A DNA stretch of 64,000 nucleotides, taken from contig CAWGYL010000002.1 of assembly GCA_963826885.1 (NCBI GenBank), forward strand, positions 129,756 to 193,755, read 5' to 3'. Positions 1,000 to 60,860 of the stretch are shown here, one piece after another; the stretch's first letter is position 1, and every line of letters begins with the position of its first letter. The DNA comes from Nitrospirota bacterium. Its GTDB lineage: Bacteria > Nitrospirota > UBA9217. The position numbers and the translations under genes were made by a program. Under the pieces are notes generated by a model. The model saw only the letters and a program-made list of their open reading frames with translations. It did no database searches and was not told where the DNA came from.

Positions 1000-3395
1000 T
1001 AGGAGGCGGGATTACTCCCGCCGTCCTCCCACACCACATACTATAACGCTCCTGTCAAGAAAAAGATTCAATTTGCTTTTATTCAATAGGATAACTTGAT
1101 CAGTATATTAAAAACGCACCTCTCTCTTTCGGCATTTACGCCGTTATCACTTTTATCGACGAGTCTCTCGCAACCAGACGAACGACATCTCTGATAGTTA
1201 TGTCACCTATGCGGCGTGCCATATGGCCGCCAAGAATACCTTATCCAGATTCTATCGTTCAAAACGAGAGGCCCTGTATTGTAGGTGACGAGGTCAACTG
1301 CCCTCAACTAACTTGAGCACGGGCTCTCCCGTCGAAATAAATTTTGCGTACACCATTATGCGGCTGCTTTTCGTTCTACCCGCTTTTCCAGTTTAAGGTA
1401 TTTCGAGTCGAAAGATTCCTTCTTTTTCATCAGCGTCCAAGCAATAATCAAGAGCTTCGCGGCGAGCTTCACCCTCATTTTCGTGGCAATGCCTTTCTCC
1501 TTCGCCCGTCCAGCAAGCTTATTCGTAAAATAGGGAATAAAGTCCTTACTCTTAATCGAGGCAATGAACGCTGCCTGGTATAACGCGCACCGCAGATCCG
1601 CCTTGCCCTGTTTGGAGATGATCGGCGTTGCCCTGTTTGACGTTCTTCCGCTTCTCTGTGCGCAAAGATCAAAACCCGCCAACCGCAAAACCTGTTTGCC
1701 GCTTGTAAAGCGGTGGGGATCGCCGATGGCTCCGAGGACCTTGGCGGATACATCCGGCCCAAACCCAGGAATGCTCAAGAGGTACGTATACTCCGGAAAC
1801 TCAAGACAGGCATTCTCAAGCTTGTCTTCAACCGCTTTGATCTCCTGCCTAACCTGTTTCAAACTATCTACTGCAATCTGAGCTTCATGGAAGGCCGCCT
1901 CTCCCATGGTGCAGCCAACGGAATTGACCGCGGTCCTCCAAATCGCTCCCACTCTGCGTTCCCGAGCCAACGTCATTTTGCCTGGTGCTACGGTACGGCA
2001 GAAATCATCGTATTCCATGCCGGCGATAGCGGAAGGATCCAGACATTCCCGCACTACCGCCAGGGTCTCTGACGATCCGTAGTACGTATCCAACTCAGGG
2101 AAATACTGTGCAAGGATATGATTGCGAATATACGCGCTTATGCCGTGTTCCCGCTTCTTCAGTCGCCGCTTGACTGCGTTTAGTACGCGCACGTTTTGAA
2201 GCGTCATCAGGGGATATTCATAAAACATGCATTTCCCCTGTGCAATGAGATCTGCGATATTAGCCGAATCCTTGTCATCGTTTTTATCCCATCGACCGTT
2301 CAGAAGTTGCCGGTTGTTCTTTACTGCCATACCGCCAACAAAAACGACCATCAGACCGCATTTGAGCAGATGCTCCGCCAGGGGCTTGTGGTAGTCTGCC
2401 GTCGGCTCGATCCCGAAAACGACTTTCGGCAGGCTGTATTGAACCTTGACACGCTCCACATGCGCATCCAGCTTTTCGAATCCCTCGATCGTGTTGTCAA
2501 AGATCACATTCCTTAAAAGCGTCTTGCCTTGCGCAGTACCAAAAAACGCACGGTGCTTCTCTTTCGCCACATCAATCCCAATGATCAAATATTCTTCCGA
2601 ACCACGAATTTCTTTCTTCAGTTGCCGAAATTGCTGAAGTCTGATATCATCAATACAGTTCATAGAAGCCTCCTGCCCTTGAATTTAGTTTCGTCATAAA
2701 CTAATTCTTAGCAGGAGGTTTCTATTTTGGATAGTCTTGAAGAAAATATTTCCTATACTTTAATGGGGAAATATAACCTCATGCTCTATCCATATATAAC
2801 ACGTACGTGCCGTTCGGCATACGGCGGTTCCTGTCTTTCCGCTCTTTCGGTGACCTTGTCGCCTCCTGTTCTATAAGCACCTGACTTTACCTCGCGGATT
2901 CCGTCCGCTACTTCCAGCCTAGGCCCTCTTGCGGGGCTTGTGCTCAGTACAGATAGAGATTCGGTCTCGAACAGTCCGACAAGTTCGGCCCTTCATCCCG
3001 TTGGTGCGGGACTAATACGGCCTCTGCTGACTTCTACCGATCCATCTCAACACCTTACGATGTCGATAGCACATGGCAGAACGGCAGACCTCCCAGGGTA
3101 AGACGCATGACCTTCATCCCATATACCCGCCGCATCTACTTCCACACCTTCCGGATGGTTATCGGGCTTTGAGTCTTTATGCCCTCTCGCCCAAGTGTGG
3201 CTGCCTCATATGCGGTTTCTGTTCGTCAGGCCGGGACTTTGCTTACAGCTTCCTTCAGATTCCGGGTCGCCCCGGACACCCTTGCTGTTCGGCTAACGGT
3301 TCCTCCCATCAAGGCCCATAAAGGACTTTCACCTTCGAGTCGCCAGTCAGTTACCAATCTGACCAGCCTGTAAAATACAGAGCGTCATGCCTGGC
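1000..3395 (-). mobile_element. IS110-family insertion sequence; ends not determinable from sequence alone. It may cover only part of this span
   Basis: The transposase gene is flanked by about 390 bp of non-coding DNA on its 3' side (965-1355) and about 730 bp of ORF-free DNA on its 5' side (2664-3395). It abuts the truncated msrA. IS110-family elements lack terminal inverted repeats, so boundaries cannot be read directly. Confidence 0.35.
1356..2663 (-). CDS. IS110-family (DEDD) transposase
   Basis: N-terminal IIGIDVAKEKH and a DKNDDKDSANIADL motif. C-terminal LLSIPGFGPDVSAKVLGAIGDPHRFTSGKQVLRLAGFDLCAQRSGRTSNRATPIISKQGKADLRCALYQAA is typical of the IS110/IS1111 C-terminal domain. RBS ggagg lies 6 nt upstream of the ATG. 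Confidence 0.85.
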   Translation of the reverse strand: MNCIDDIRLQQFRQLKKEIRGSEEYLIIGIDVAKEKHRAFFGTAQGKTLLRNVIFDNTIEGFEKLDAHVERVKVQYSLPKVVFGIEPTADYHKPLAEHLLKCGLMVVFVGGMAVKNNRQLLNGRWDKNDDKDSANIADLIAQGKCMFYEYPLMTLQNVRVLNAVKRRLKKREHGISAYIRNHILAQYFPELDTYYGSSETLAVVRECLDPSAIAGMEYDDFCRTVAPGKMTLARERRVGAIWRTAVNSVGCTMGEAAFHEAQIAVDSLKQVRQEIKAVEDKLENACLEFPEYTYLLSIPGFGPDVSAKVLGAIGDPHRFTSGKQVLRLAGFDLCAQRSGRTSNRATPIISKQGKADLRCALYQAAFIASIKSKDFIPYFTNKLAGRAKEKGIATKMRVKLAAKLLIIAWTLMKKKESFDSKYLKLEKRVERKAAA

Positions 3396-24327: not shown

Positions 24328-24912
24328 CTAATAAGTGATCACGTTTACGCCAAACAAACGGAAATTATACTTAAGATCGCAATAACCTTTAGAATCGAGA
24401 CTGAAGGCCTTGGGATTCAATATTAGTTCAACACAAGAGGCGGGGCTATGCATCACCGCATCCATCAGTTTTGTTGACTTTATGGCATAGAGCTTACCAT
24501 CATCCGACGCTATGTATATGGCCCCATCAGCACCGATGACGGGGGAAGAGTACAAATAACCTCCTATCGTATAACTCCACTTGAGCCTGCCATCTGGGTT
24601 TATTGCATAGAGGTTGCCATCATCCGACGCTATGTACACAGTCCCATCTGCACCGATGACAGGGGAGGAGTACAAGTTACTTTCTGTTGCATAGTTCCAC
24701 TTGAGCCTGCCATTGGGGTTTATTGCATAGAGTTTACCATCATTCGACGCTATGTACGCGGTCCCATCTGCAACGATCGCGGTGGAGGATGACAAGGGAC
24801 TTTCTATTGAATATCTCCACTTGCAAGCGCCATCGTTCAACAAGGTCCTTCGAAATCGGATAGACACAGCCCTGAAGAAGCATGACAGAGCCAAAGAGCA
24901 AGACAATCGTTT
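24328..24912 (-). pseudogene. PQQ-like beta-propeller repeat lipoprotein with an apparent frameshift just after the signal peptide
   Basis: A lipoprotein signal MKTIVLLFGSVMLLQGC starts at 24912 in one frame. The repeats NDG.LYAINP.GRLKW.Y...YSSPVIGADG.VYIAS continue in another frame (the ORF-track frame 24328-24906). The frame switch occurs around 24830-24850. Confidence 0.5.
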
Positions 24913-33856: not shown

Positions 33857-33901
33857 CATGGAAGTCGGATTTATCGGATTGGGACGGATGGGTGCAAGGT
33901 G
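33857..33901 (+). pseudogene. Remnant 5' end (14 codons) of an NAD(P)-binding dehydrogenase gene (6PGDH/HIBADH-type N-terminus)
   Basis: aggagg RBS plus ATG encoding MEVGFIGLGRMGA, the classic GxGxxG Rossmann start of 3-hydroxyisobutyrate/6-phosphogluconate dehydrogenases, followed immediately by a stop. Downstream is about 550 bp of AT-rich non-coding DNA. Confidence 0.4.
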
Positions 33902-34459
33902 AAGGCTGGATGATCAGAATTGTTAGGGAGGTGAATAATTCTGTTTGAATTATGGATATTATGTATGGTTTTTCTGGCAACAAGTACTTCCTGCTGTTTA
34001 AGATTCCATTCATTGCAAAACATCAACTTTCAAGCTTAATTCTCAACCTGAATTCTGCATCATCGAAGGAGTTTGAATATCCGGCATATGACGTAGTTGA
34101 TAATATCATTAATCAAAACCGCTTCGATACCTGCTAATAACCTCATCACGATCAGTGCCTCAGCCCAAGCCTACTTCAAATCGTATGGGGAGATGTTAAA
34201 TTCTATTCATATCAGTATAATCATCTCCTTGATCATATAAAGACCCCTAAAAAATAATGGGTAGAGCTAAAGAATCCGCTCCGTTATTCCGATAAGAAAT
34301 GTGTAATATTACGTCTTATTTCTGTAACATCATTTTTTAGAATGAGTATTCTAGTCACTCGACAGTACGAGGTTATGCACACGCGGGGACTTTAAAGGAT
34401 GCCGCATTAGCTGGCTGTAGTAAGAACCAAAGCGACACCCCCCAGGTAAAGGAGGGCAT

Positions 34460-35466: not shown

Positions 35467-38106
35467 ATGGCGGTACGTCATAAGCATAAAAGTATACGGT
35501 ACAGATTCCTCAAAGATCTGTCGGTTATCCTCTTTATAAGCACTGTTGTTCTGAGTACGGTCATTGCAGTAAACGAGGGTCGGATGCTCAATCGGTCCCT
35601 TATTACCAAGGGTAGAAGTTTCGCATCCTACATAGCCAAACTCAGTAAGGATCCGCTGATCATGAAGGACAGCATTCAGCTTGATTCAATTGTCAGCGAC
35701 GCAAGCAAAGATGAAGATATCCTGTATGCCGTGATCGATGATGCCAATGGAAGCCTCACTACCTCCCAGTTCGCCAGTATCAATTACCGGTCTCCGCGAT
35801 TGAAGGCCATCCTGAAGGGTCTGCCGAAAGAGAGTGAACTCCAGAATATTATTGACGCCATCAGGAAGCGAGGGGCTGCAACGGAAGTTTCCATGCCTAT
35901 TTTTTCGGGTCTGTACAAGATAGGTGAAGTGACTATTTGCCTGTCGCAGTACGCCATCCACCGGCAGATCTTGAACACTGTGCTTTTCATACTCGTACTC
36001 AACATCGCCGTGGCTTTTATCCTCGGCTATGTTGTGTTTTCCGTGTCTAGACAGGTTCTCTTCAAACCGCTGGCTGAACTTGCCGGAGCGACGGATCGTC
36101 TTGCAAAAGGCGATCTCACATCCCGGATTACACTGCAGGCCGCCGATGAACTGCAGGTGCTGTTTGATAATTTCAACCGCATGGCCGAGGACCTTGACAA
36201 ATCGACGGTGTCCAAGGCATACATGGATAACATCATCGAGGGCATGATCAACACATTCATCGTGGCTGATCAAGAAGATAAAATCATAAGGGCCAATGCC
36301 GCGACTTGCAGTCTCCTGGATTACCGCGAAGATGAATTGAAAGGGAAACCCATTAACACGATTCTTGCAGGGAACGAAGCGGCAAATTATTTTCAGATAA
36401 AGACACTGCCGGTGGAGAAACGCATCAACATGCTTGAGGGCTCCTACAGGGCAAAGGGCGGTCAAATGATACCGGTGCTTCTATCAGTGTCTGCCCTGTA
36501 CGATGAGAAGAACGTACACCAGAGTACGGTTTACATCGCGCAGGATTTCACCGAGCGCAAGAAAACGGAGGAGTTGATAAAGCAGAACGAAATTTTCATC
36601 AAAAGCATCCTTGAAAGCGTGGATGAGGGTTTTGTCGTCGTAGGCAAGGATTACCGGATCATCTCGGCGAACAGGGCTTTTTGCGACAAGGCCGGGATGA
36701 CCATTGAAGATGCAATCGGCAGATACTGCCATGAAGTGTACCAACGCCGCACGACCCCCTGTTTTGAGGCCGGGGTGCAGTGCTCCGTGAAGCACACTCT
36801 CGAAACCGGTGAACACGCCGCATTTATGCATACACATTGCGATGAACACGGAATCCCAATGTACGTTGATACAAAGTCGTATGCCATGCGGGACGCCACG
36901 GGCAATGTGACCTCCGTGATCGAGATCAGCGTCGATGTCACCGAGAAGAAAAAACTGGAAGATCAATACCGACATGCGCAGAAAATGGAGGCGATAGGCC
37001 AGCTTGCTGGCGGCGTGGCGCACGATTTCAACAATATCCTGTCCGCGATCATCGGCTACGGTCACCTTTCTCAGATGAAACTACGCGACGACGATCCGGT
37101 GAGGCACTATATCGACCAGATTTTACAGTCTTCGGAGCGCGCAGCCGCTTTGACACAGAGCCTGCTCGCATTCAGCAGAAAGCAGCCCGCGAAAAAAGAG
37201 CTTCAAGAATTGAACTCAGTGATCAGGAATTTTGAGAAATTCCTGCACCGCCTGCTGCGCGAAGACATCGAGATGACGACCCGATACTCGATCGAGCGGC
37301 CCGTGATTATGGCAGATCGGGGACAAGTTGAGCAGGTGATCATGAATCTCGTTACGAACGCACGTGATGCCATCCCGGACAGGGGGAAACTGACCATCGA
37401 TACCAAGGTCAGTGCCATGGACGAGGCGTTTTTACGGGCTCACGGTTACGGCAAGGTGGGAGACTATGCCATGCTGTCGGTGTCGGACACTGGCGTTGGA
37501 ATGAATAAAGAGACCAAGAAGAGGATTTTCGAACCGTTCTTCACAACCAAGGAAATGGGAAAAGGGACCGGTCTCGGACTGGCTATAGTGTATGGGATCG
37601 TGAAAGCGCACGATGGTTTCATTAATGTGTATTCTGAGCCGGAGAAAGGGACCACCTTTCACGTTTACTTCCCCGTGGTCAGAACGACGAATGCCGTGCC
37701 TGAACTTGCGGAGCAAATTCCGGTCCCGCTCAAGGGTGGAAACGAAACGATCTTCCTCGCTGAGGACGACGCGAGTCTACGCAATATGACGTCGGTCGTT
37801 CTCCGGGGAATGGGATATACAGTGATCGAGGCGGAGGACGGTGACAGGGCGGTTGTCAGGTTCGGCGAGAACCGCGCAACAATCAAACTCGTGATTCTTG
37901 ATGGCATTATGCCAAAGATGAACGGCTTGGAAGCGTATCAGAAGATCAGCGCTCTCAACCCGAATATCCGTTGCATTTTCATGAGCGGCTATTCGGGAGA
38001 AGTATTCGCACAGAGCGGCTTGCCGAACGGCACGGAGTTCCTACCGAAACCGGTAAAGCCATCGGAGCTGTTGAGCAAGGTTAGGGAAATGCTTGACAGG
38101 GAATAG
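35467..38106 (+). CDS. Hybrid sensor histidine kinase (periplasmic sensor, HAMP, PAS, HisKA, HATPase_c, C-terminal receiver)
   Basis: Two TM segments bracket a periplasmic domain. HDFNNILSAIIGY is the H-box. DTGVGM...GTGLGLAIV are the G-boxes. The C-terminal receiver has ...LAEDD... and ...LVILDGIMP..., with the Asp in ILD. Confidence 0.85.
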   Translation: MAVRHKHKSIRYRFLKDLSVILFISTVVLSTVIAVNEGRMLNRSLITKGRSFASYIAKLSKDPLIMKDSIQLDSIVSDASKDEDILYAVIDDANGSLTTSQFASINYRSPRLKAILKGLPKESELQNIIDAIRKRGAATEVSMPIFSGLYKIGEVTICLSQYAIHRQILNTVLFILVLNIAVAFILGYVVFSVSRQVLFKPLAELAGATDRLAKGDLTSRITLQAADELQVLFDNFNRMAEDLDKSTVSKAYMDNIIEGMINTFIVADQEDKIIRANAATCSLLDYREDELKGKPINTILAGNEAANYFQIKTLPVEKRINMLEGSYRAKGGQMIPVLLSVSALYDEKNVHQSTVYIAQDFTERKKTEELIKQNEIFIKSILESVDEGFVVVGKDYRIISANRAFCDKAGMTIEDAIGRYCHEVYQRRTTPCFEAGVQCSVKHTLETGEHAAFMHTHCDEHGIPMYVDTKSYAMRDATGNVTSVIEISVDVTEKKKLEDQYRHAQKMEAIGQLAGGVAHDFNNILSAIIGYGHLSQMKLRDDDPVRHYIDQILQSSERAAALTQSLLAFSRKQPAKKELQELNSVIRNFEKFLHRLLREDIEMTTRYSIERPVIMADRGQVEQVIMNLVTNARDAIPDRGKLTIDTKVSAMDEAFLRAHGYGKVGDYAMLSVSDTGVGMNKETKKRIFEPFFTTKEMGKGTGLGLAIVYGIVKAHDGFINVYSEPEKGTTFHVYFPVVRTTNAVPELAEQIPVPLKGGNETIFLAEDDASLRNMTSVVLRGMGYTVIEAEDGDRAVVRFGENRATIKLVILDGIMPKMNGLEAYQKISALNPNIRCIFMSGYSGEVFAQSGLPNGTEFLPKPVKPSELLSKVREMLDRE

Positions 38107-38300
38107 CAAGAGACAAGAACGAGGAGTGAATGCCCGCCTCTCATCTTATATTCACAATTTACAAACCGATTTGTTGATTGTTTCAAAAAATGAGAACTAC
38201 ACGCTTGTAGGTGGATCTCGGAGAGCCAAGATTAGTCTACTACAGAATCTATACACCCCAATTCGCCTTTCTGACATTAGACAGAGTCTGTTTATTAATT

Positions 38301-38434
38301 AACAAAGCAATATATTCTAACCACCTATAGCGATGGGATATTCAAGGGTATTACAACAAATAGAGAATGGATATCGCACAACAAGATACATCTATAATTC
38401 TTCACCTCAATTAAATTATGATTTCTGAGAGATT
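38301..38434. repeat. 134-bp repeat R, copy 1 (direct repeat of 47569-47702)
   Basis: aacaaagcaatatattctaaccacctatagcgatgggatattcaagggtattacaacaaatagagaatggatatcgcacaacaagatacatct...atttctgagagatt matches 47569-47702 with 2 mismatches. Confidence 0.85.
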
Positions 38435-38650
38435 ATGCCAAGAACATATGCTTAATGCGTAATCGTGTCAATGATTCCGATGGAGTGTTTTAGAGTAGAT
38501 GTATGAGAATTCAAGTTCAAGTAAGCCGCTCCGCGGCAGAGAAGCAAAGACCGCTTCCTTCGCCTGTCCCATCTCGCCTGATTTTTTTTGAGTAATTTCC
38601 GTGCTACCATATTTCTCCATTGCAGTTCAATCTTATTTCACAAGGAGAAT

Positions 38651-39523
38651 ATGGTCATGGAAAACTGGTACGAGAAGTCCATCAATGCTTTGCAACTGAG
38701 CGGTATGTCCGAACGAACGCAGGCAAACTACACCCGCGCGGTGCGGCTGCTCACCGAGCATTACGGCAAGACCCCCGATCTCATTACCGAAGAAGAGCTT
38801 CAGGAGTACTTCCTCAATCGCAGGAATGTCAGCAAGTGGGCGCCCAACACCATGCGCATCTGCTATGCCGGGATCCGCTTCTTCTTTGAGACCGTACTTC
38901 AGCGCGACTGGCACATTCTCAGCATCATCCGGGCTCAGCCAGAACACCGGCTACCCACCGTACTCAGTACCGAAGAGGTGCTCAACATTCTCGCCCGAGT
39001 CTCTTCTCGTCGCAACCGCGCCTTCCTCTCCACGGTTTACTCCTGTGGTCTCCGGCTTCAGGAAGCGCGGTACCTAGAAACCGCTGATATCGACAGCAGT
39101 CGTATGATGATCCACATACGTAAGGGCAAAGGCGCGAAGGATCGTTACGTTCCACTTCCTCATGCGACGCTTGCCATTTTGCGAAAGCATTGGGATACAC
39201 ACAAAAACCCGAGGCTGATCTTCCCCTCACGGGTCTTACACGGCAAAAAATCGGATAGTCAGATCCCGGTCTCTATCAGCACAGTACAGAGAGCGCTCCG
39301 GGACGCGGTACATGCTGCGGGCATCCAGAAACGCGACGTTTCCATCCATACCTTGCGTCACTCGTATGCGACCCATTTGTTAGAAGCCGGTGTCAATCTG
39401 CGTGTGATCCAGCGGTATATGGGCCACTCCAGCCTTGAGACCACGATGATCTATCTCCATCTGACGACCAAGGGTCAGGATGATGCCTTCAAGCTCATCG
39501 ACCAGATCATGGTGGGGTTCTGA
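38651..39523 (+). CDS. Tyrosine recombinase / phage-integrase-family protein (orfA of the IS91-family element)
   Basis: R...HTLRHSYATHLLEAGVNLRVIQRYMGHSSLETTMIYLHL carries the R-H-R-Y catalytic box with the terminal Tyr. RBS aaggaga before the ATG at 38651. Confidence 0.8.
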   Translation: MVMENWYEKSINALQLSGMSERTQANYTRAVRLLTEHYGKTPDLITEEELQEYFLNRRNVSKWAPNTMRICYAGIRFFFETVLQRDWHILSIIRAQPEHRLPTVLSTEEVLNILARVSSRRNRAFLSTVYSCGLRLQEARYLETADIDSSRMMIHIRKGKGAKDRYVPLPHATLAILRKHWDTHKNPRLIFPSRVLHGKKSDSQIPVSISTVQRALRDAVHAAGIQKRDVSIHTLRHSYATHLLEAGVNLRVIQRYMGHSSLETTMIYLHLTTKGQDDAFKLIDQIMVGF

Positions 39524-39525
39524 TC

Positions 39526-40620
39526 ATGGATACGGTCAATGACATCTTCCGCACCTATGCCCCGGAGTACCTGACGCGGTTTGGTGGCGCTATCCCTGGG
39601 GAACATCGTAAGGCGATAACCGCGATTATCAACTGCCGCACCCCGGCCTCTGGAACGACCTACTTTCGGTGCGAATCGTGCGGGGAGCGGCACGCGATTC
39701 ACCGCTCCTGCGGAAATCGCCACTGCCCGACCTGCCAACATCATAAGAGTCAACAGTGGCTCGAAAAACAGCTTGATCGGCGTGTGCCGGGGCACCACTT
39801 CATGATTACCTTCACGGTGCCGGAACAAATTCGCCGGTTTATCCGGAGCAACCAGCGGGCGGCTTACGCCGCCCTGTTTTCCGCCTCCTCCGAAGCCATG
39901 AAAAAGCTGGTTCTCGACCCTAAGTTCATGGGCGGCGATCTGCCAGGCTTCTTCGGAGTCCTGCACACTTGGGGCAGAACGCTTGAGTATCATCCTCATA
40001 TCCACTATATCGTCGTAGGCGGAGCGCTCTCGTCTGATGACAAGACCTGGAAGCCCTCAGGAACCGGCTTCTATGTGCCGGTCGAAGCGTTGTCTCCCAT
40101 CTTTCGAGCGAAGTTCAAAGACGAAATGAAAAAGGCCGGTCTTTTTGATCAAATACCCGACGAAGTATGGCGAATTGACTGGAACGTAAACTCTCAGGCA
40201 ATTGGTTCAAGCGAGGCAAGCCTCAAGTATCTTGCCCCCTATGTCTTCCGGGTAGCCTTGTCCAACAGCCGTATCGTGAAAGTTGAGAACCGTCAGGTCT
40301 TCATTCGGTACAAAAAGACCGGGAGCAATCGCTGGAGGATGCTGGTCCTGGACGTAATGGAGTTTGTGCGCCGATTCCTCCAGCACGTGCTGCCAACGGG
40401 GTTCATGAAGGTGCGATATTACGGTTTCCTGAACGCCGCGTGCAAGGTCCCGCTTGAGAACATCAGGACGCTGATTGAGCTGGCTTATGGATTCGAGGTA
40501 ACAATGTCTGAAATCGAACAGATGCCGCCATTGCCCCGTCCAACCTGTGGAAGCTGCGGCGGCACGCTCAAAGTGCTTTATGTCTCTCTGCCGCATCAGC
40601 ACCTGGCACGCGCCGGATAG
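39526..40620 (+). CDS. IS91-family transposase (HUH endonuclease, Y2 type)
   Basis: N-terminal zinc-finger-like CxxC...HxxxCxxC (CESCGERHAIHRSCGNRHCPTC). HUH motif in HTWGRTLEYHPHIHYIV. The twin-tyrosine region YLAPYVFRVALSNSRI is present, as is C-terminal CGSCGG. Confidence 0.85.
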   Translation: MDTVNDIFRTYAPEYLTRFGGAIPGEHRKAITAIINCRTPASGTTYFRCESCGERHAIHRSCGNRHCPTCQHHKSQQWLEKQLDRRVPGHHFMITFTVPEQIRRFIRSNQRAAYAALFSASSEAMKKLVLDPKFMGGDLPGFFGVLHTWGRTLEYHPHIHYIVVGGALSSDDKTWKPSGTGFYVPVEALSPIFRAKFKDEMKKAGLFDQIPDEVWRIDWNVNSQAIGSSEASLKYLAPYVFRVALSNSRIVKVENRQVFIRYKKTGSNRWRMLVLDVMEFVRRFLQHVLPTGFMKVRYYGFLNAACKVPLENIRTLIELAYGFEVTMSEIEQMPPLPRPTCGSCGGTLKVLYVSLPHQHLARAG

Positions 40621-40967
40621 CATTTGACGATTCTGATGTACCATGTGTTTCTGACGTGTGGTCCCGCGGGTATTATCCGCGCGGTCAACGGCCCCGTTCG
40701 GCCATGTGCGCGGATTAGGCGTTCACTCCACGATACGCTAATCAAGAGAATCGCACTGGTTTCACGATAAACAGATTAAAACAGTCTATGGCACTCCATA
40801 ATCTACTCACTTCAGGCTTTCACCGGATATCACCCACCGAAGCATTACCCTATATATAGAGGACATCGGCCATCAGTCTGCCGCTCCGGGCTTCTTGAAC
40901 TATGGATTGAGCACGACGTAAAGATGTCGTCTCAATCCTTTTTGGTTGAAAATTACATCGTTCCAAA

Positions 40968-41110
40968 AAATGGAAACTCGTTTGCTACAGGAAGGATCTG
41001 CTGACAGAAAACATTATTACAAAATGCAATGATACATGTGATACAAAATGAATTCTGTACCTTCGCTAATATTATATGAAACTGGACTTCACTTTCTAGT
41101 CTGCAATTTC
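40968..41110. repeat. Interspersed modular repeat, B-type copy 1
   Basis: aatggaaact...caggaaggatctgctgacagaaaacattattacaaaatgcaatgatacatgtgatacaaaatgaattctgtaccttcgctaatattatatgaaactggacttcac is about 85-90% identical to 59090-59232. Confidence 0.75.
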
Positions 41111-42301: not shown

Positions 42302-42499
42302 AGGATTATCGTTTCCGTGCTCCCGGGAAAAAGCGGAGATTCTGATGATTTGCTTCTTGAGTAAGCCGGTGGTCTATCCGGCAACTTCTGAATCAGACCC
42401 TCTGCTCCATCTCCGAGGCGTATTTGCCGAGACGCGCGAGGCCGTTCAGCCTCGCACGCTTGAAACAAATCCCAAGTAGCCCCTCATTAGGTGCTGAAT

Positions 42500-43480
42500 T
42501 CAATGAAAAACAGCTTCTGTCTGTTCCACCTTTTTCCACGTTTTATCAGGGTCATATGCTGTAACTGCTTTTGCTATCTCTTCCGTCTTGGGCCCGAGGT
42601 CCTTTTCATATACAACACCCTTTTGGTTAACCATGAAGGTCATGATCCCCGAAACGCCGTACTGTGCAGGATATGCCGCCAGGCCAAAACCTTTTACCAT
42701 TTTGCTGTTGACTACGTAATCAAGTTCGCCACCGGGAGCATTGCTGCCCTGGCTTTTCAGGATCTTGAAATAATACCCGTGATAAGGTGAGGGCTTTTCT
42801 CCTTTCCTAAATGTGTATCCTTCTTCTGTTGCACGGGCAATGAGTGGACCCAGAGGACTACTTTCCTCTCCAGAAGCGGCTTCCCAGTACAGGCCATCCT
42901 TCTCGTTTTTCTGGCTCTGAAAGTGTTGCGCGTATTGTAGTACTGCGTCGCTATTGCGTTCCTTGCTGGCATACTCACGCTGGGCATCCACATAAGCGAG
43001 AGAAACCTGAATGGTATTCAATTCGTTTCTGCCTATTCTCCGATTTATGATCTCTTCCTTACCATCTTCTGTAAAAAAAATCCATCCCTGGCCTGACTTC
43101 ACAATGGGAATCGGGAAGCACCATACATCTTTTCCGATATATACTAATAGTGTCTTGTCGTCAAATTTTGAAAACTTAACTCCTTCTGCAGCAGCCTTAG
43201 CGAAACGTTGGCGGCCCTGCGTATCGGCAATGGCATCGCCAGAGGATATGACATCTTTGCTTCCAGACCCGAAAATGGCCAGTAATTCTTTGGTGTCATT
43301 GTTCTTGTCTGCCTCTAAGAGAGCACTGAATGCGTCTTGTGGAGACTTGAACTCTCTTTGCCTTATTTCCTGAGCAGAGGCGAGAAAACCAAAAGCCGTT
43401 ACTTCAATTATGATCATGAAAGCTGCTAAATCACGGCAAAAAAAAGGGTTTTTTAGTTTTGTTACACGTCTGAACATCAT
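42500..43480 (-). CDS. Secreted protein of unknown function (resembles DUF2950-family proteins; attribution from memory, unverified)
   Basis: Signal peptide (K-rich n-region, ...AFGFLASA). About 300-aa mature protein with no catalytic motif. Likely start MMFRR at 43480 with perfect RBS ggaggaaaga. Co-oriented and closely spaced with 43571-44638 and the AI-2E transporter. Confidence 0.45.
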   Translation of the reverse strand: MMFRRVTKLKNPFFCRDLAAFMIIIEVTAFGFLASAQEIRQREFKSPQDAFSALLEADKNNDTKELLAIFGSGSKDVISSGDAIADTQGRQRFAKAAAEGVKFSKFDDKTLLVYIGKDVWCFPIPIVKSGQGWIFFTEDGKEEIINRRIGRNELNTIQVSLAYVDAQREYASKERNSDAVLQYAQHFQSQKNEKDGLYWEAASGEESSPLGPLIARATEEGYTFRKGEKPSPYHGYYFKILKSQGSNAPGGELDYVVNSKMVKGFGLAAYPAQYGVSGIMTFMVNQKGVVYEKDLGPKTEEIAKAVTAYDPDKTWKKVEQTEAVFH

Positions 43481-43570
43481 TCTTTCCTCCATAAATCGGC
43501 AATCCGATAATATTTCATTCATTTTTAATAACCGAGAGATGACGTCTGGCCGTCGAGACACTACATAGTT

Positions 43571-44638
43571 TCACCTGGAACGCCCGCCACGCCCGCCACC
43601 CCCGCCACCATGGTATCCTCCCCCACCGCCACCACGGGGAACTCCACCACCACTACCACGGATAACTCCACCACCAGTGGAGCTTCTACTAGCGGGGATT
43701 TGACCGGCCCTGGAGCGGCTTTGGAATCCACGGTTGCTCGCGGCCCGCTCAAACCGGCTGTTAGCGGAGCGCACAAAGGCACTTGAGCGAGTTGCAGCAG
43801 AAGATCCTGACACACCGTAGCCCCTGAATTGTTTAATTGCCTGTGCACCTCTCTGCGCAGAAGGACGGGCTCTTTGCATGTCTCCAGTTTCCGCGAAAGT
43901 TCCACCACGAAATCTGTTTGTCGGATCTATGCGCGACATCCTGCCTGTCCTGGGATCGCGATAATGATTGCTGATGAATCCTCCGAGCCTGCGCTCATGT
44001 TCATGCCGATGCCCATGCACTCTAATATCAAAGTCTACGAGAACAAAAAACCCCTGGAACCAGAAATCCGACCACCAAAAAGGATAAGGTACCCAAGTAT
44101 AAAGGTATGCATAATCGGGAGGTGGAGTATAGTACGTCACAACGGGGGGGCCTTCAGTAGAGTAATAGTTGTCCATGTCTGTGGATTCAGGGTAATTCGT
44201 GCCGGGTGTTTCACCCGGCAACTGCCCCACAGCAGGTCTTACGGGCATATCATATCCCTTTATGACCTCCTGAAAAGCTGCCATTGCCGCATCTTTTCCC
44301 CCAAATAATTTCCCAGAAGCAGCCGCTTCACTAATTGAAGCTTGTACCTCATCTATAATATCAGGCGTAACCGGGTAATCGGCGATCCATCCATTTCGGG
44401 GCGTTATGCCGACAGAACTCAATGCACTCTCCGCTTCAGCCTCACTCATCGCCGCGCCAAGTTTAAACGCTTCCGTGAGATCGACCGCAAAATCTCCTTC
44501 ACGAGTAAGTGGCTGTGCTATAGGGGGGGTTGCGACATTCGTCTGCTCTGATTGTGCAATTGCTGCTGCAGGGATCAATAGCAAAACGCCTAGCATGAAA
44601 ATAAACACTCTGAACAGTGATCTCCTCCTCATACACAT
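43571..44638 (-). CDS. Secreted protein with an aromatic-rich core and a long Gly/Arg/Ser-rich low-complexity C-terminal tail (DUF3300-like, attribution uncertain)
   Basis: Signal peptide MRRRSLFRVFIFMLGVLLLIPAAAIA. Central YYTPPPDYAYLYTWVPYPFWWSDFWFQGFF and a HGHRHEHERR segment. C-terminus ...GGGVIRGSGGGVPRGGGGGGYHGGGGGGRGGRSR. Confidence 0.4.
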   Translation of the reverse strand: MCMRRRSLFRVFIFMLGVLLLIPAAAIAQSEQTNVATPPIAQPLTREGDFAVDLTEAFKLGAAMSEAEAESALSSVGITPRNGWIADYPVTPDIIDEVQASISEAAASGKLFGGKDAAMAAFQEVIKGYDMPVRPAVGQLPGETPGTNYPESTDMDNYYSTEGPPVVTYYTPPPDYAYLYTWVPYPFWWSDFWFQGFFVLVDFDIRVHGHRHEHERRLGGFISNHYRDPRTGRMSRIDPTNRFRGGTFAETGDMQRARPSAQRGAQAIKQFRGYGVSGSSAATRSSAFVRSANSRFERAASNRGFQSRSRAGQIPASRSSTGGGVIRGSGGGVPRGGGGGGYHGGGGGGRGGRSR

Positions 44639-45121
44639 TCTCCTTCCCCAACTGGACCTTCCTATATTTTATCAAATAAAATGTCCTTACGGCAATTATA
44701 TACGGCAGTTTACTTTTGGAGTTAGCAGAAGAAAGTCTCTTATGTAGCAACGCGGACGAGGGAAGCCTCCGAAAAAAATGAGCATAATGAGCAAAATAAC
44801 AAATACAGTTCGAAAACTGAAGTGTTTCAAAGAATGGAAACTACAACAGCTATAGAAAGTATTCTGCGATTTCCAAAAGATGAAACTCTCGCGGACTACA
44901 GGAAGATAGTCGATGATTGTTTCCACTTAAGATTGATGAGGGGAAAAAACTACTACAATTCTACTACAGTTACAAGAAGAGGATTTACAAATAGTGATCC
45001 AACTCCCTAAAATAATTGGTGTCTCAAGATGGATTCGAACATCTGTAACCGCCTCTATTACCCACAAAAGAAAATGAGTTATGGGAAGTACCATAACTAA
45101 TTTATTTTATAAATATAATTT

Positions 45122-45169
45122 GCGTCCCCAAGGGGATTTGAACCCCTTTTATCGCCGTGAAAGGGCGGT
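45122..45169 (-). other. Partial tRNA-Glu(UUC) gene: 3' 48 nt only (anticodon stem-loop through acceptor 3' strand). Candidate integrase att-site remnant
   Basis: The minus-strand reading ACCGCCCTTTCACGGCGATAAAAGGGGTTCAAATCCCCTTGGGGACGC aligns almost base-for-base with the 3' half of bacterial tRNA-Glu (ACCGCCCUUUCACGGCGGUAACAGGGGUUCGAAUCCCCUAGGGGACGCCA). The sequence 5' of it has no D-arm or acceptor complement. Confidence 0.6.
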
Positions 45170-45590
45170 ACGTGACATTTTCAGCAAAAAACGTAACTGG
45201 GCGATTGGCAACGGCTTTGAGCTAACTTATGAAAAATCAAACTATTTTTTCGATTCTGTCTATTCTGCGGTTTCTGTAGATTCTGCCCTTGGAGCAAAAT
45301 TCTACGACAATTCTACGACAGTCTACGGCACCAGCCATACACACCAATTCACCTTTCTAACATTAGACGGTGTCTGTTTATTAATTTCACGTGGAGTTGA
45401 AATCATCCGGCACTATCCTGTGTGGGCGGGTCACAGCGGCAAAAAGAGCGGAACTTTGTCGTCAGAAAATATGCAAAACAATAGCACGATCAATCAACAT
45501 TTGGTTTCATTCTTTCGCAAAATGTTCGTCAATTGACCCGGGTTCGTGCAAATGCTCTTGCATACATTGCGTCATTTTATGCATCATCTT

Positions 45591-46331
45591 TTATGCGCTC
45601 CCGGCGCAGCACTTCTTGTACTTCTTGCCGCTCCCGCATGGACATAATTGATTACGGTGTATCTTGTCCATGCGCGCGGGAGTGGGCTTTTCGCTTGGGA
45701 TTATCGGTCTTCTCATTCCCCGCGGCTCGGCTAGTCTGGATTCGCGCAAGCCCGCATTGATCCTCGCGATACAATGGATCATCACTTCCTCGAGTTGCGA
45801 AACGTTCTTCCTCGACTCGATTATATCGCTTTCCTTAGCTGTTTTCTCTCGCTCAAGCAACTCCATTAGCTTCTCCTGCACTGTGCTTACCGTTGCAAGG
45901 TCCATGAAAGCTAGTTTAACGTCTCCGGTAAGATCGGTCTCCTGCAGTCCACCCAGGTCGAGCCCTTTGATGAAATAAATTATAAACGCAAGGTGGCCCT
46001 GAATATTTTGCTTGAGCCCATCGAGAGTTTCGGGGTATTCTGTATCGGGGTAGACATATTCTCCCTGTTCCGGCTTCCAGCTCGCAATAAGATTCCAGAG
46101 AGACATGATGTTTCCGAGTGTCATGTTTGCATCGTCCAGGGATTCGAAGGGCTTTCTGTCCTCCCGGCCGAGAATAAGTTCCAGAAAGTCCGATGGCTTA
46201 ACCATATGCGGTGCTGCGATGCAGCCGTAGAACAGACCGTAGACCTCATAGAGCGTCCGTTTTGACCCACATTTCTCCAGCGATTCTCGCATGGTCGTGT
46301 CGCCGCAGTAGGCATTCGGTGGTGTGAACAT
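45591..46331 (-). CDS. YecA/UPF0149-like protein with a C-terminal SEC-C metal-binding motif
   Basis: C-terminal ...LCPCGSGKKYKKCCAGS is the SEC-C zinc-binding motif. The N-terminal ~200 aa are acidic and alpha-helical. Confidence 0.6.
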   Translation of the reverse strand: MFTPPNAYCGDTTMRESLEKCGSKRTLYEVYGLFYGCIAAPHMVKPSDFLELILGREDRKPFESLDDANMTLGNIMSLWNLIASWKPEQGEYVYPDTEYPETLDGLKQNIQGHLAFIIYFIKGLDLGGLQETDLTGDVKLAFMDLATVSTVQEKLMELLEREKTAKESDIIESRKNVSQLEEVMIHCIARINAGLRESRLAEPRGMRRPIIPSEKPTPARMDKIHRNQLCPCGSGKKYKKCCAGSA

Positions 46332-46361
46332 GTATCCCCTTTTTTTAAAAAGCAGCAGGCT

Positions 46362-46856
46362 TCAGCCCGTATGACTCTTCTTTTTCGGCGCTGTCTTCTT
46401 CAAATAATTTTCGAAAAGTTCGCAAGTGCTTTCGAATGCACTCTGATCCCTTTCCGTCATGTGATCGTAGCCGTCAGGCAGTATACCGCCAGATTCGACG
46501 GATTCCATAAGCTTCTTGAGGGGAGTGGTTTTGTACTCTTCGTACATCGAAACATGTCTGATGATCAATCCGCCCAACAGCCATGCATTGTCGATATGGA
46601 TTTTCAGCGTCTTCCGGGACCGATTACCTTTTACTTTTATGAGCACGTCCAGAAACTCTTCCATATATGACAGCAGTTTCTTTCCATATTCACGATCTTC
46701 CCTGGTACCCATCCATCGCTCTGGCCATTTGTCGAAATCGGGAGACGGTTCCGCAGGGTTATAGGCCGTTCTGCTCCCGCCTTTCTCACCATATTTGACA
46801 CTCCCTTTCCTAAGCAGCATTGCTTGAACTTTTAGAGTATGTCCGGATCTCCCCAA
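46362..46856 (-). CDS. Hypothetical cytoplasmic protein
   Basis: 164-aa ORF co-oriented with flanking genes. No recognisable motif. Confidence 0.35.
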   Translation of the reverse strand: MGRSGHTLKVQAMLLRKGSVKYGEKGGSRTAYNPAEPSPDFDKWPERWMGTREDREYGKKLLSYMEEFLDVLIKVKGNRSRKTLKIHIDNAWLLGGLIIRHVSMYEEYKTTPLKKLMESVESGGILPDGYDHMTERDQSAFESTCELFENYLKKTAPKKKSHTG

Positions 46857-47016
46857 ATGATATTAAGTAATAATATCACACCGTTATTTTTTTAATGAGA
46901 TGCACCAGAATTCCGTATTAGTCTTTTACTCCACGATTATAGACCATATTGAATACATGGGAATTGCCAACCGCACACTGTCGCCCCCCACGTCCCTCTT
47001 GAACAACTGGTTAAAC

Positions 47017-47310
47017 CTATTTCATTCTGTCAATCCAATAGTCCGGTTGTCTGTGTAAATGCGCGAACGCAAGAACAACTATTTTGTCATCCTGAATGGA
47101 ATAGAGAATTTTGTATGGGAATTTGTGTACGATGTACCGCCGAATTTCTTTCCGCTCGGACGGCCACGCTTGAGGGTATTGTTGTATGCGGACAAGGGAA
47201 TGCCTGATTTGTTCCTCGAACTGGGTTCCTACGCCCGGTTGCTCTATTTCATAAAACTCTTTAGCCTCATCATATTCCCGACGGGCAATTTCGAGAATTT
47301 CTATGAACAT
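47017..47310 (-). CDS. Type II toxin, RelE/ParE family
   Basis: 97 aa with ...IRRYIVHKFPYKILYSIQDDKIVVLAFAHLHRQPDYW typical of ParE/RelE plasmid-stabilisation toxins. It sits immediately downstream of a small antitoxin ORF with a 2-bp gap. Confidence 0.8.
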   Translation of the reverse strand: MFIEILEIARREYDEAKEFYEIEQPGVGTQFEEQIRHSLVRIQQYPQAWPSERKEIRRYIVHKFPYKILYSIQDDKIVVLAFAHLHRQPDYWIDRMK

Positions 47311-47312
47311 GA

Positions 47313-47528
47313 TTATTTTCTACTGAACATGTCCTCGAAAGAGACTGTTTTAGTTTTACCGGCTTTGTAGGCTTTGAGCCTTTTCTCGGCTTCAGCCACC
47401 CACACTTTTTCAATTTTAGGATCGGGGACATCAAGGCTCTTTAGCAAGGCTTCGATTATGATGGATTTTTCTGCAGGTTTAAGATGTAAGGCTTTTGCAA
47501 TTATAGTTTTCGTTGGTGACATGTTCAC
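47313..47528 (-). CDS. Type II antitoxin (putative addiction-module component) paired with the RelE/ParE toxin
   Basis: 71 aa with Lys-rich helical ...VWVAEAEKRLKAYKAGKTKTVSFEDMFSRK. Gene order is antitoxin then toxin. Confidence 0.65.
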   Translation of the reverse strand: MNMSPTKTIIAKALHLKPAEKSIIIEALLKSLDVPDPKIEKVWVAEAEKRLKAYKAGKTKTVSFEDMFSRK

Positions 47529-47568
47529 ACCTCGTATTCTTACAAAAAATTATATCACAGGTCGCGGT

Positions 47569-47702
47569 AACAAAGCAATATATTCTAACCACCTATAGCG
47601 ATGGGATATTCAAGGGTATTACAACAAATAGAGAATGGATATCGCACAACAAGATACATCTAATATTCTTCACCTCAATTAAATTATGATTTCTGAGAGA
47701 TT
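47569..47702. repeat. 134-bp repeat R, copy 2 (direct repeat of 38301-38434)
   Basis: See copy 1. Two mismatches over 134 bp. It lies about 200 bp downstream of the stop of the minus-strand hybrid kinase gene. Confidence 0.85.
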
Positions 47703-47913
47703 CACCTACAAGTCTGCGTAATCAATTTTGTGACAAGGGTCAAGAATACCACATGAAACATACTTCATCGCACGATATCTCATTGTTCTTCTCGATGGGT
47801 TGGTTAATATCATTGTATCGTGTTGCGTCCTCCTTATTCCAACATTTGTATCTTATAGCTGCTCACCATGCTCTCTTGCGTTACGCGTATGTGAAGCTTC
47901 ATGGAGCAACCCG

Positions 47914-50550
<2,637 letters not shown>

Positions 50551-52924: not shown

Positions 52925-53030
52925 GCAACTGCCTTAGAAGAGGAAGGACAGTGGACTAAAAAGTTCAAACGGAATTATTCACTTTTGTTATCAATTCTGC
53001 CCTCCAGCCTTCACCTCCCATGAAGAGGTT
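52925..53030. repeat. Interspersed modular repeat, A-type copy
   Basis: caactgccttagaagaggaaggacagtggactaaaaagttcaaacggaattattcacttttg shares the GGAAGGAC...TTGACTAA.AACTTCAAAC.GAAT.ATTCA core with copies at 56570, 60775 (rc) and 63590 (rc). Confidence 0.7.
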
Positions 53031-53317: not shown

Positions 53318-54346
53318 TTAGTTCGTCCGCAGCAAACTTGCATCATAAGGTTTTCGGTCACGAAGCACGTAAAAGATAATCTCTATCAATTTTCTTGCTA
53401 ATGCGACTACTGCAGTCTTGTTGCCTCTTCTCCTGGCTATACGTTCATACCATTTCCTCAATGGTTTGCTTTCACTGTTTGTACTTCGTAATATTGCATG
53501 CGCACTCTGAACTGCTACGTGCCTGACTTCGCTTCGTCCCTCGCGGGTTATATGGCCATAATCAGCCCGCTCTCCACTACTAAACACACTTGGCACAAGA
53601 CCGCAATAACTCGTTAACTGCTTTGCTCGCTTGAATCGCGTTATGGTCGAGATCGCGGCATAATAGGTCTTGGAGGACACCTCGCCGACTCCGGGCACGC
53701 TCTTCAATAACGCAACATCCTTATTTTGGTAGTCCGCAATCACGTCATCCAGCACGTCTTTTTGCTTTCGGAGCTCTGCAATCGCTTTCCCATAACTCTC
53801 AACGATTGGATTTAGGTGTTTTGGAACGCTTTTATTCTCCTGGAGCCTTGTAAAGATCGATTCATCATCGAAAGCTTTTGTCTTGAGTTTTATTCCTTCT
53901 TGTCGCAACATGCCCCGTAGATGGTTCTTAAGGCATGTTGAACTCTTTAAAAGTTGGTGTCGAGAGCGTAAGAGATCGCGTAACTCTCGGCTATCGCCCT
54001 CTGCCATATACACTCTTTCGGGCAATTCGTCTATCCGTAATAATTTTGCAAGGAATATGGCATCTACCTTGTCGGTCTTCTTCTTGTTCTTGGCAATGAG
54101 CTTTACCTTGTTAGGATTAACAATATAAACGCTGATTCCCAGCTTCTTGAGCGTATCATGTATCCAACGGCTATGGCCGCCTGCCTCGACTGCTACCTTT
54201 ACAGGCTTATTCATCCATCGCTTGAAATACTGCCGATAGCCATCCTTATCCGTAGGGATCTCTTGGCTCTCGACCTTTCTTCCTTTGCCATCGGTGACGT
54301 ACACATAACTGCTTTTCTCAGATACATCGCATCCAATGTAGAACAT
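53318..54346 (-). CDS. IS110-family (DEDD) transposase, second copy, a different family member from 1356-2663
   Basis: FYIGCDVSEKSSYV N-terminus, KTDKVDAIFLAKL, and C-terminal LKSVPGVGEVSSKTYYAAISTITRFKRAKQLTSYCGLVPSVFSSGERADYGHITREGRSEVRHVAV. RBS aaggagg 7 nt before the ATG at 54346. Confidence 0.85.
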   Translation of the reverse strand: MFYIGCDVSEKSSYVYVTDGKGRKVESQEIPTDKDGYRQYFKRWMNKPVKVAVEAGGHSRWIHDTLKKLGISVYIVNPNKVKLIAKNKKKTDKVDAIFLAKLLRIDELPERVYMAEGDSRELRDLLRSRHQLLKSSTCLKNHLRGMLRQEGIKLKTKAFDDESIFTRLQENKSVPKHLNPIVESYGKAIAELRKQKDVLDDVIADYQNKDVALLKSVPGVGEVSSKTYYAAISTITRFKRAKQLTSYCGLVPSVFSSGERADYGHITREGRSEVRHVAVQSAHAILRSTNSESKPLRKWYERIARRRGNKTAVVALARKLIEIIFYVLRDRKPYDASLLRTN

Positions 54347-54665
54347 GGCGGCTACCTCCTTACTGTGATATTTGTTACTTCTAATCACATGGTAGCACCG
54401 AATATTTGTTTTCCCCCTCCTTCATAATATCTACAAGTATGGAATGTCACCCATTTGAAGGCTCCCTGTCAAGTGAAAAAATTACCCCGTGACGAGAAAA
54501 TGATATTTTCTCGAGTGGAGGTGTTTGATCGTCTGGAGTTTGATGTTGATGTGAAGATACGTATCTTCAAAGATGAAAGGCCGTAGCTCTGCCTTTTCCC
54601 GGCGCTCTTTGACGTGGCAAAAAAAAACGTCAAGGGCAGTCAAGCAGATCCTATTAGTCGTACTG
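54347..54665 (-). ncRNA. Candidate bridge-RNA-encoding left end of the IS110-family element. Inference only
   Basis: About 320 bp of ORF-free sequence immediately 5' of the transposase gene, the position where IS110-group elements encode their non-coding guide (bridge) RNA. No structure was computed. Confidence 0.25.
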
Positions 54666-59089: not shown

Positions 59090-59232
59090 AATGGAAACTA
59101 CAACTGCCTTAGAAGAGGAAGGACTCGGTGACAGAAAACATTATCACAAAATGCTATGATACATGATACAAAATGAAATTTACACCTTCGCTAATATTTT
59201 ATGAAACTCGGCTTCACAAGCTTGTACTTTCC
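59090..59232. repeat. Interspersed modular repeat, B-type copy 2
   Basis: aatggaaactacaactgccttagaagaggaaggactcggtgacagaaaacattatcacaaaatgctatgatacatgatacaaaatgaaatttacaccttcgctaatattttatgaaactcggcttcac; see 40968-41110. Confidence 0.75.
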
Positions 59233-60774: not shown

Positions 60775-60860
60775 GCTTGTAGGTGGAGCCCGCAGAGCCA
60801 GGATCAGAAAAATAATGAATTATTCCGTTTGAAGTTTTTAGTCAAAGCTCCTTCCTTGAA
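60775..60860. repeat. Interspersed modular repeat, A-type copy in reverse orientation
   Basis: The reverse complement reads caaggaaggagctttgactaaaaacttcaaacggaataattcattatttttctgatcctggctctgcgggctccacctac. Confidence 0.7.

Follow-up and report, generated by a model that had tools for sequence, protein, structure and literature searches.

The stretch 44940-45330 of the analyzed window (the whole stretch of DNA under study, 64,000 nucleotides) is likely a fossil junction, produced when tRNA-Glu-targeting elements integrated successively or in tandem, the integrase having since been lost. It would represent the decayed attachment-site junction of tyrosine-integrase elements aimed at the anticodon loop of tRNA-Glu(UUC). 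Relics of this kind are common and well understood, and the locus is a further example of a widespread element family entering this anticodon loop, opening no new question. Its use lies mainly in annotation: it identifies 38.1-47.9 kb, bounded by two convergent sensor-kinase genes, as a zone where decayed mobile DNA has accreted. The features of the site and of its surroundings are listed in Table 1.

Table 1. Features of the tRNA-Glu site and its surroundings, with positions in the window
Feature	Position	Strand	Description
Fragment 1	45122..45169	-	3' 48 nt of tRNA-Glu(UUC): anticodon stem-loop, variable loop, T-arm and acceptor 3' strand, without 5' half
Fragment 2	45017..45053	-	Decayed Glu-like 3' end, from the anticodon stem 3' strand to ...ACCA
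AT-rich hairpin	45067..45108		Core stem 45077-45098, 8 bp, 6-nt loop; T-run on both strands; terminator-like
DR1	45299..45329	-	Tandem array of three repeats (10-11 bp: GCCGTAGACT, GTCGTAGAAT, TGTCGTAGAAT), 127-153 bp from fragment 1 on its upstream side
DR2	44947..44968	-	Tandem pair with the DR1 motif, TGTAGTAGAAT and TGTAGTAGTTT, oriented like DR1 and 47 bp past the downstream end of fragment 2
Short motif GAAACCGCAGAATA	45261..45274	-	After DR1; second copy GAAATCGCAGAATA at 44860-44873, after DR2
Element A	45320..45386	-	67 bp adjoining DR1; internal AGAC-NNN-GTCT palindrome
Cargo between B2 and A	45591..47528	-	2.18 kb between the two elements
UPF0149/SEC-C protein	45591-46331	-	Cargo
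Uncharacterized protein	46362-46856	-	Cargo
ParE-type toxin	47017-47310	-	Cargo
Addiction-module antitoxin	47313-47528	-	Cargo
Repeat B2	47568..47702	-	135 bp, 98.5% identical to B1; directly precedes the antitoxin gene
Second core-less island-end copy	38234..38434	-	A' (38234-38300, 85% identical to A) abuts B1 (38300-38434); no tRNA fragment
Two-gene module	42480..44756	-	Secreted protein (43571-44638) and DUF2950 protein (42500-43561), at the place of the integrase in the model attP
Identity to related-strain contig L143	47855-45200		~95%
Identity to L143	45192-44902		81%, 63% and 84% in successive 100-column windows
Identity to L143	44901-42205		~99.7%
Identity to L143	42204-40942		~90%

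An orphan 3' end of tRNA-Glu(UUC)

Fragment 1 (ACCGCCCTTTCACGGCGATAAAAGGGGTTCAAATCCCCTTGGGGACGCA; minus strand, 45169 to 45122) carries the anticodon UUC. It agreed with the 3' 50-mer of consensus tRNA-Glu(UUC) at 47 of 50 positions, compared to 30/50 at the runner-up site when both strands of the window were considered. In local alignments its score was 44 with tRNA-Glu(UUC) and did not exceed 15 with any non-Glu isotype. Relative to intact genes (e.g. L031 and L035), two substitutions were present in 47 nt and one C of the CCA end was missing, the changes being GGCGG to GGCGA, C to A in the variable loop and CCA to CA. When 44640-47913 was compared by BLAST with phage and plasmid records, the stretch of fragment 1 gave the sole match, which fell on annotated tRNA-Glu features.

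ARAGORN called no tRNA gene in the whole 64-kb window. Infernal returned a tRNA match below threshold (19.4 bits, gathering score 29) that covered model positions 10-63 only and contained a mismatched pseudo-D-arm, and none of the Rfam 15 families reached the gathering score at the fragment site. Fragment 1 lacks the complete cloverleaf and the paired acceptor stem of a functional tRNA gene, and its predicted fold was like that of shuffled sequence (z = -0.15). The sequence-only reading had placed the 3' 48 nt of tRNA-Glu(UUC), without a 5' half, at 45122-45169 of the minus strand; this was exact in position, and the reading stands, since no complete tRNA was found at the site and the match lies well above the best other site in the window, the yardstick used for random T-arm-containing sequence.

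Displaced 3' tDNA fragments are markers of island ends. In the Islander survey of Hudson, Lau and Williams (PMC4383910), a 3' fragment was reported for 3760 of 3919 islands; anticodon-centred sites were the commonest class (2083), and tandem arrays occurred as well (125). The sublocation classes used in that survey go back to Williams (2002; PMC100330), which it cites. Like the islands of that survey, the window harbors a 3' tRNA-gene fragment that is no complete gene and whose break is anticodon-centred, a canonical crossover sublocation, identity starting with the anticodon stem's 5' strand; in addition, there are signs of more than one integration. Islander however demands an intact tDNA and an integrase for each island, and because both are absent from the window, the site is described here as a relic and not as a mapped island. 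The anticodon stem of tRNA-Glu in a Syntrophobacterales genome (L019) reads CCGGC/GCCGG, compared to CCGCC/GGCG in fragment 1, and given this difference fragment 1 may be an element-borne copy instead of a displaced host gene.

A second fragment and a hairpin lie downstream of fragment 1

Fragment 2, read from 45053 to 45017 (GGCGGTTACAGATGTTCGAATCCATCTTGAGACACCA), is separated from fragment 1 by 68 nt. It matched the Glu 3' 37-mer at 27 of 37 positions, while the best unrelated site among ~128,000 positions reached 22/37. Its first eleven bases at the 5' end (the GGCGGT.ACAG part) are Glu-specific, and the canonical register gives no paired T-stem. A second tRNA-like 3' end had already been proposed at 45025-45060; it is real, although these coordinates are off by ~8 nt. 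Such pairs less than 70 nt apart are rare, a second Glu-like stretch within 400 bp being present at only 1-2 of 154 comparison sites.

The AT-rich hairpin between both fragments begins 24 nt after fragment 1 and folds far better than shuffled sequence (z = -3.7). Compared to a contig of a related strain (L143, see below), its stem is kept via two two-sided changes (T-A to C-G and G-C to A-T) and one change from G-C to G-T. As the stem survives these changes, the hairpin probably works as a terminator.

Tandem repeats flank the tRNA-like sequences

Repeats of the TGTCGTAGA type were found upstream of fragment 1 (DR1) and downstream of fragment 2 (DR2). By their placement, DR1 is a candidate for the arm-type integrase sites of a P arm and DR2 a candidate P' arm; that the repeats would be bound by an integrase is suggested by the layout and by analogy to the viral attachment site described below. 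Tandem arm-type repeats around a core are a further trait of Islander-type sites, and in the window the sequence layout offers them as putative integrase sites. The sequence TGTMGTAGA occurs four times in the window (0.5 expected), with all copies on the minus strand and within DR1, DR2 and 38236-38244. The distance of DR1 to the core is 127-153 bp, compared to ~90-100 bp in most comparison loci.

Both copies of DR2 contain GTAGTAG in the window and GTCGTAG at the same position of L143 (8430-8450), where the state is as in DR1. This shared change looks like homogenization of tandem copies.

When viral contigs were scanned with the arm motif, one match was obtained (L124). It was rejected as a related site and attributed to chance, as it lies in GC-rich, coding-like DNA with no further similarity and no tRNA. 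Scans of viral contigs with element A and with the P-arm/core junction returned nothing.

Fragments of the same tRNA-Glu in other genomes and in viral contigs

Species-representative genomes were scanned with the 25-mer GGGGTTCAAATCCCCTTGGGGACGC, which returned at least 119 loci, mostly from Desulfobacterota among the matches listed. In the listed genomes, intact tRNA-Glu is usually paired as tRNA-Lys/tRNA-Glu. At least 19 of these at least 119 listed genome loci are orphan fragments, and nearly all of the 19 listed orphans break in the anticodon stem or loop, like fragment 1. In IMG/VR the same 25-mer was present in 32 contigs, ~27 of the matches being orphan fragments, many of them at contig ends.

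To compare the upstream regions, 300 bp upstream of 49 orphan Glu fragments and 147 control stretches were searched for direct repeats of at least 11 nt with a spacing of 9-24 bp. Such repeats were detected for 19 of the 49 orphans and for 12 of the 147 controls (Fisher p = 2.5e-6). Upstream of the comparison orphans the repeats are 11-12 bp long and mostly located at -87 to -101 from the fragment. At 15 of 18 non-redundant comparison sites the repeat motif is missing downstream, as predicted for attR. The proposal that the site is a fossil att site of tRNA-targeting elements agrees with these comparisons, both in the break at the anticodon stem (5' edge), which the listed genome and viral orphans share, and in the arm-type-like tandem repeats upstream of fragment 1, as upstream of the comparison orphans.

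An attP with a similar layout is found in a viral contig (L175, IMGVR_UViG_3300009522_000002; the same element is present in L162). It carries a 3' orphan of this tRNA-Glu, which begins at the anticodon loop, and tandem repeats on both sides of it, all in one orientation (11-12 bp, two at -99/-87 and two at +22/+34). Directly after the downstream repeats follows a tyrosine integrase gene (PF00589), whereas none is present at this place in the window. The letters of the repeats also differ (CAGGGGTAAAA in L175, TGTCGTAGAAT in the window), and the distance between the arms is ~175 bp longer in the window, where the hairpin and the decayed second fragment intervene. Homologues of the L175 integrase adjoin tRNA-Glu in at least 20 fetched loci. 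A P' arm with the motif was seen in essentially one independent model element, because L162 and L175 share the same integrase.

Other arrangements, of the sort that underlies the Islander method, were encountered among the comparison loci. In L153 the intact gene and the fragment are separated by 10 kb, and L165 contains two fragments together with two integrase genes. A Desulfobacteraceae MAG (L040) has the order intact gene, 2.85-kb islet, fragment and integrase remnant. Like the window, it thus has a small integrase-less islet upstream of an orphan Glu fragment, with cargo of the toxin-antitoxin or abortive-infection type resembling that of the window and with the remains of a second element downstream. 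In contrast to the window, it keeps an intact tRNA-Lys/tRNA-Glu pair and a C-terminal remnant of the integrase. The cis-mobilisable elements (CIMEs) of Streptococcus thermophilus, which form by accretion and deletion of integrative elements, are integrase-less as well; having accreted in tandem and lost the recombination module, they still carry att-type sequences. They hold two usable att sites and are mobilisable by a related element, whereas one internal, mutated junction is visible in the window.

None of the products of the window genes at 41-48 kb is encoded near the fetched tRNA-Glu loci. In a related contig (L141, 13587-13623, plus strand), an orphan tRNA-like 3' end (AGAGGTTCAAATCCTCTCGCTGATACCA) lies beside a PIN/PhdYeFM toxin-antitoxin pair, and ARAGORN calls no tRNA there.

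Island cargo and surroundings

The cargo between elements A and B2 (Table 1) lies on the 5' side of fragment 1. A single TGTAGTAGA motif is present in A' at 38236-38244 (minus strand, 38244 to 38236), and we read the A'-B1 copy as the presumed P-arm end of a related, more decayed element. B1 and B2 are closer to each other (98.5% identical) than to the L143 orthologue (~95%).

Between 47.9 and 64 kb, genes for a sensor kinase, an IS110 transposase, UbiB, MsrA, a hydrolase and a decarboxylase are found, and no integrase gene. Since this region looks like ordinary chromosome and the synteny with L143 breaks at 47854, the upstream island is a remnant of ~2.7 kb and no large island running to an intact tRNA past the window. 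The island had been expected towards higher coordinates, and a ParE-type toxin with its antitoxin, cargo typical of islands, is indeed encoded on the 5' side; island DNA however lies on both sides, and its 5' part is limited to ~2.7 kb.

A tblastn search of the window with the L175 integrase returned only an IS91-associated recombinase (E = 2e-4), and Pfam scans of the flanking ORFs revealed no other integrase. A tyrosine integrase between tRNA and fragment or by the P' arm, as in Islander islands, is absent from the window. The sequence-only reading had suggested that the intact tRNA, and possibly an integrase, lie outside the window or were lost; in line with this, neither is contained in the 64 kb according to ARAGORN, tblastn and Pfam.

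The IS91-associated tyrosine recombinase (38588-39523) was rejected as the cognate integrase, as its element ends at 38506 and ~40978, lacks the motif and is a multi-copy IS. This element (38506-40978) is a two-gene member of the IS91 family, in which a tyrosine recombinase (PF13495 and PF00589) precedes a Y2 transposase. This transposase protein is recorded in 99 index blocks, and L127 contains two diverged tandem copies of the element. In L125 the left flank of the element is common with the window and the right flank is different; as the DNA to the right differs there, the adjacency of the two relics in the window may be the product of recombination between IS copies.

Gene callers predicted an ORF at 45081-45536 across fragment 1. 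It was rejected as a gene and is spurious, because it matches no family and is not called in L143.

The secreted-protein/DUF2950 pair, including its promoter region, was found with 83-85% nucleotide identity in unrelated contexts (L138-L142). These contexts, together with the ~99.7% identity of the pair to L143 next to neighbors at 90-95%, suggest that it moves or recombines between lineages. DUF2950 homologues were also tried as a route to an empty site, which was given up: they lie on five other contigs in unrelated contexts, and no tRNA is nearby. An exact-protein look-up of the product of 43571-44638 gave no record.

Related contigs and decay of the site

Two diverged copies of the locus, that of the window and that of the related-strain contig L143 (ENA ERZ25039509, contig_68094), were compared. 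L143 contains an orthologous block from 47854 to 40942 that is 95% identical. Fragment 1 differs between both copies at 5 of 48 nt and fragment 2 at 11 of 37 nt. The repeats diverge from L143 as fast as their surroundings, and both fragments and the repeats diverge faster than the flanks (~95% and ~99.7% identical). A recombination breakpoint exactly in the anticodon loop is not claimed, since differences to L143 become more frequent from ~20 nt before fragment 1 onwards. Beyond window position 47854, L143 (1-5521) consists of unrelated DNA of 61.5% GC with GDP-mannose dehydratase-like and cupin ORFs, which is either another host background or an assembly chimera.

Short contigs that are identical to the window or nearly so occur in several peat and soil metagenomes, all of them arranged like the window. 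A metagenome scan with element A recovered nothing beyond a copy of this locus with 100% identity (L131). A Logan contig (L003) joins 47567-B-38435. The join may represent a circular or tandem junction, or else a k-mer chimera, which is conceivable since the two copies of B share their last 38 nt; seven other contigs agree with the window.

Proposed origin of the junction and alternative explanations

On the minus strand, the order of the proposed junction would begin with the island cargo (B2, the toxin-antitoxin pair, two small genes and element A), continuing into a P arm with its three TGTCGTAGA-type repeats. The core, represented by fragment 1, would then be followed by the terminator hairpin, by an older core relic (fragment 2) and by a P' arm with two repeats. 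An active element would have its integrase gene after the P' arm; here an unrelated two-gene module occupies this place. Because the DR1 motif also occurs downstream of fragment 2, at the position of the P' arm in L175, the junction resembles an attP or tandem array with island-derived DNA on both sides. We infer that it arose either by successive or tandem integration, so that the P arm of one element, a core and the P' arm of the next would have come to lie together, or as an attP within a larger accessory block, and that the site would now be inactive.

A related proposal had been that fragment 1 marks a plain attR. This held insofar as the site is an att relic, but not as a plain attR, since the DR1 motif recurs downstream of fragment 2. 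If it were the attR of a single intact and possibly active island, extending from 45170 to an intact tRNA-Glu and an integrase past 64000, the presence of P-arm-type repeats and toxin-antitoxin cargo 5' of fragment 1 would be explained and the orientation of the fragment would be consistent. Such an island is nevertheless quite unlikely: the genes at 47.9-64 kb include no integrase, the similarity to L143 ends at 47854, the downstream motif is one that most comparison attR sites lack (15/18), and both fragments are mutated, unlike a recently displaced fragment. It is also unlikely that the junction still works and is served in trans by an integrase elsewhere in the genome, with the flanking integrase-less modules acting as cis-mobilisable cassettes. 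The anticodon stem-loop of fragment 1, which is identical in the window and L143, would fit this, as would the ~99.7% identity of 44901-42205 right after DR2 between neighbors at 90-95%, the presence of an "empty" A'-B copy alongside the "filled" A-cargo-B copy and the join seen in the Logan contig. On the other hand, neither the repeats nor the two fragments have changed more slowly than the non-coding DNA around them. The high-identity tract stops inside an AI-2E transporter gene, an end point of the kind that homologous recombination produces, and k-mer chimerism can explain the Logan junction, the seven other contigs matching the arrangement of the window. There is accordingly a slim chance that the locus is a live hot spot at which a distant integrase recognizes the anticodon stem-loop and the TGTCGTAGA arms and swaps small cassettes between lineages. 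If true, this would account for the near-identical 2.7-kb segment by DR2 and for the "empty" A'-B copy, and the swapped cassettes would be the toxin-antitoxin module and the secreted-protein/DUF2950 pair.

Fragment 1 might alternatively belong to a tRNA-Glu pseudogene or a tRNA-like RNA unrelated to integration, for example as part of a SEC-C operon 3' UTR that ends with the hairpin. Compensatory changes that keep the stem of the downstream terminator hairpin, one T-stem pair of fragment 1 that changes from A-T to G-C in L143, and weak partial Infernal matches to tRNA and to a viral tRNA-like element point in this direction. Against it, neither ARAGORN nor Infernal recovered a cloverleaf, the acceptor strand is without partner and the fold of the fragment is at shuffled level, while dozens of att-site fragments break at exactly this point and the repeats on either side fit an att architecture, so that an RNA element is very unlikely. 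Chance resemblance to T-arm-containing sequence is refuted for fragment 1, for which nothing speaks in its favor, given the wide gap to the next best site. For fragment 2, part of the score comes from the generic GTTCGAATCC and CCA motifs, yet its match exceeds that of the best unrelated site and its 5' part is Glu-specific; as an explanation of the site, chance has next to no probability. We therefore retain the fossil junction of tRNA-Glu-targeting elements as the likely explanation.

Further observations in the window

The paralogous hybrid sensor kinases that converge on the accessory region (~880 aa; 35467-38106, plus strand, and 47914-50550, minus strand) are partly 73% identical at the DNA level. 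A dispersed repeat with 81-100% identity between pieces of 24-105 bp was found at 40989-41092, 59116-59217, 52926-52981, 60816-60856, 33897-33949 and 52964-53016, partly near the IS110-family transposase gene (53318-54388), and it is also present beside an IS91 copy in L130. A tandem repeat with a period of 120 bp and ~80% identity between copies (24479-24823) is located inside the ORF 24328-24906. At 2988-3276 on the minus strand, group II intron RNA domains were detected by Rfam (147 and 67 bits), and the adjacent ORF (1356-2663, minus strand, 435 aa) may encode the intron-encoded protein.
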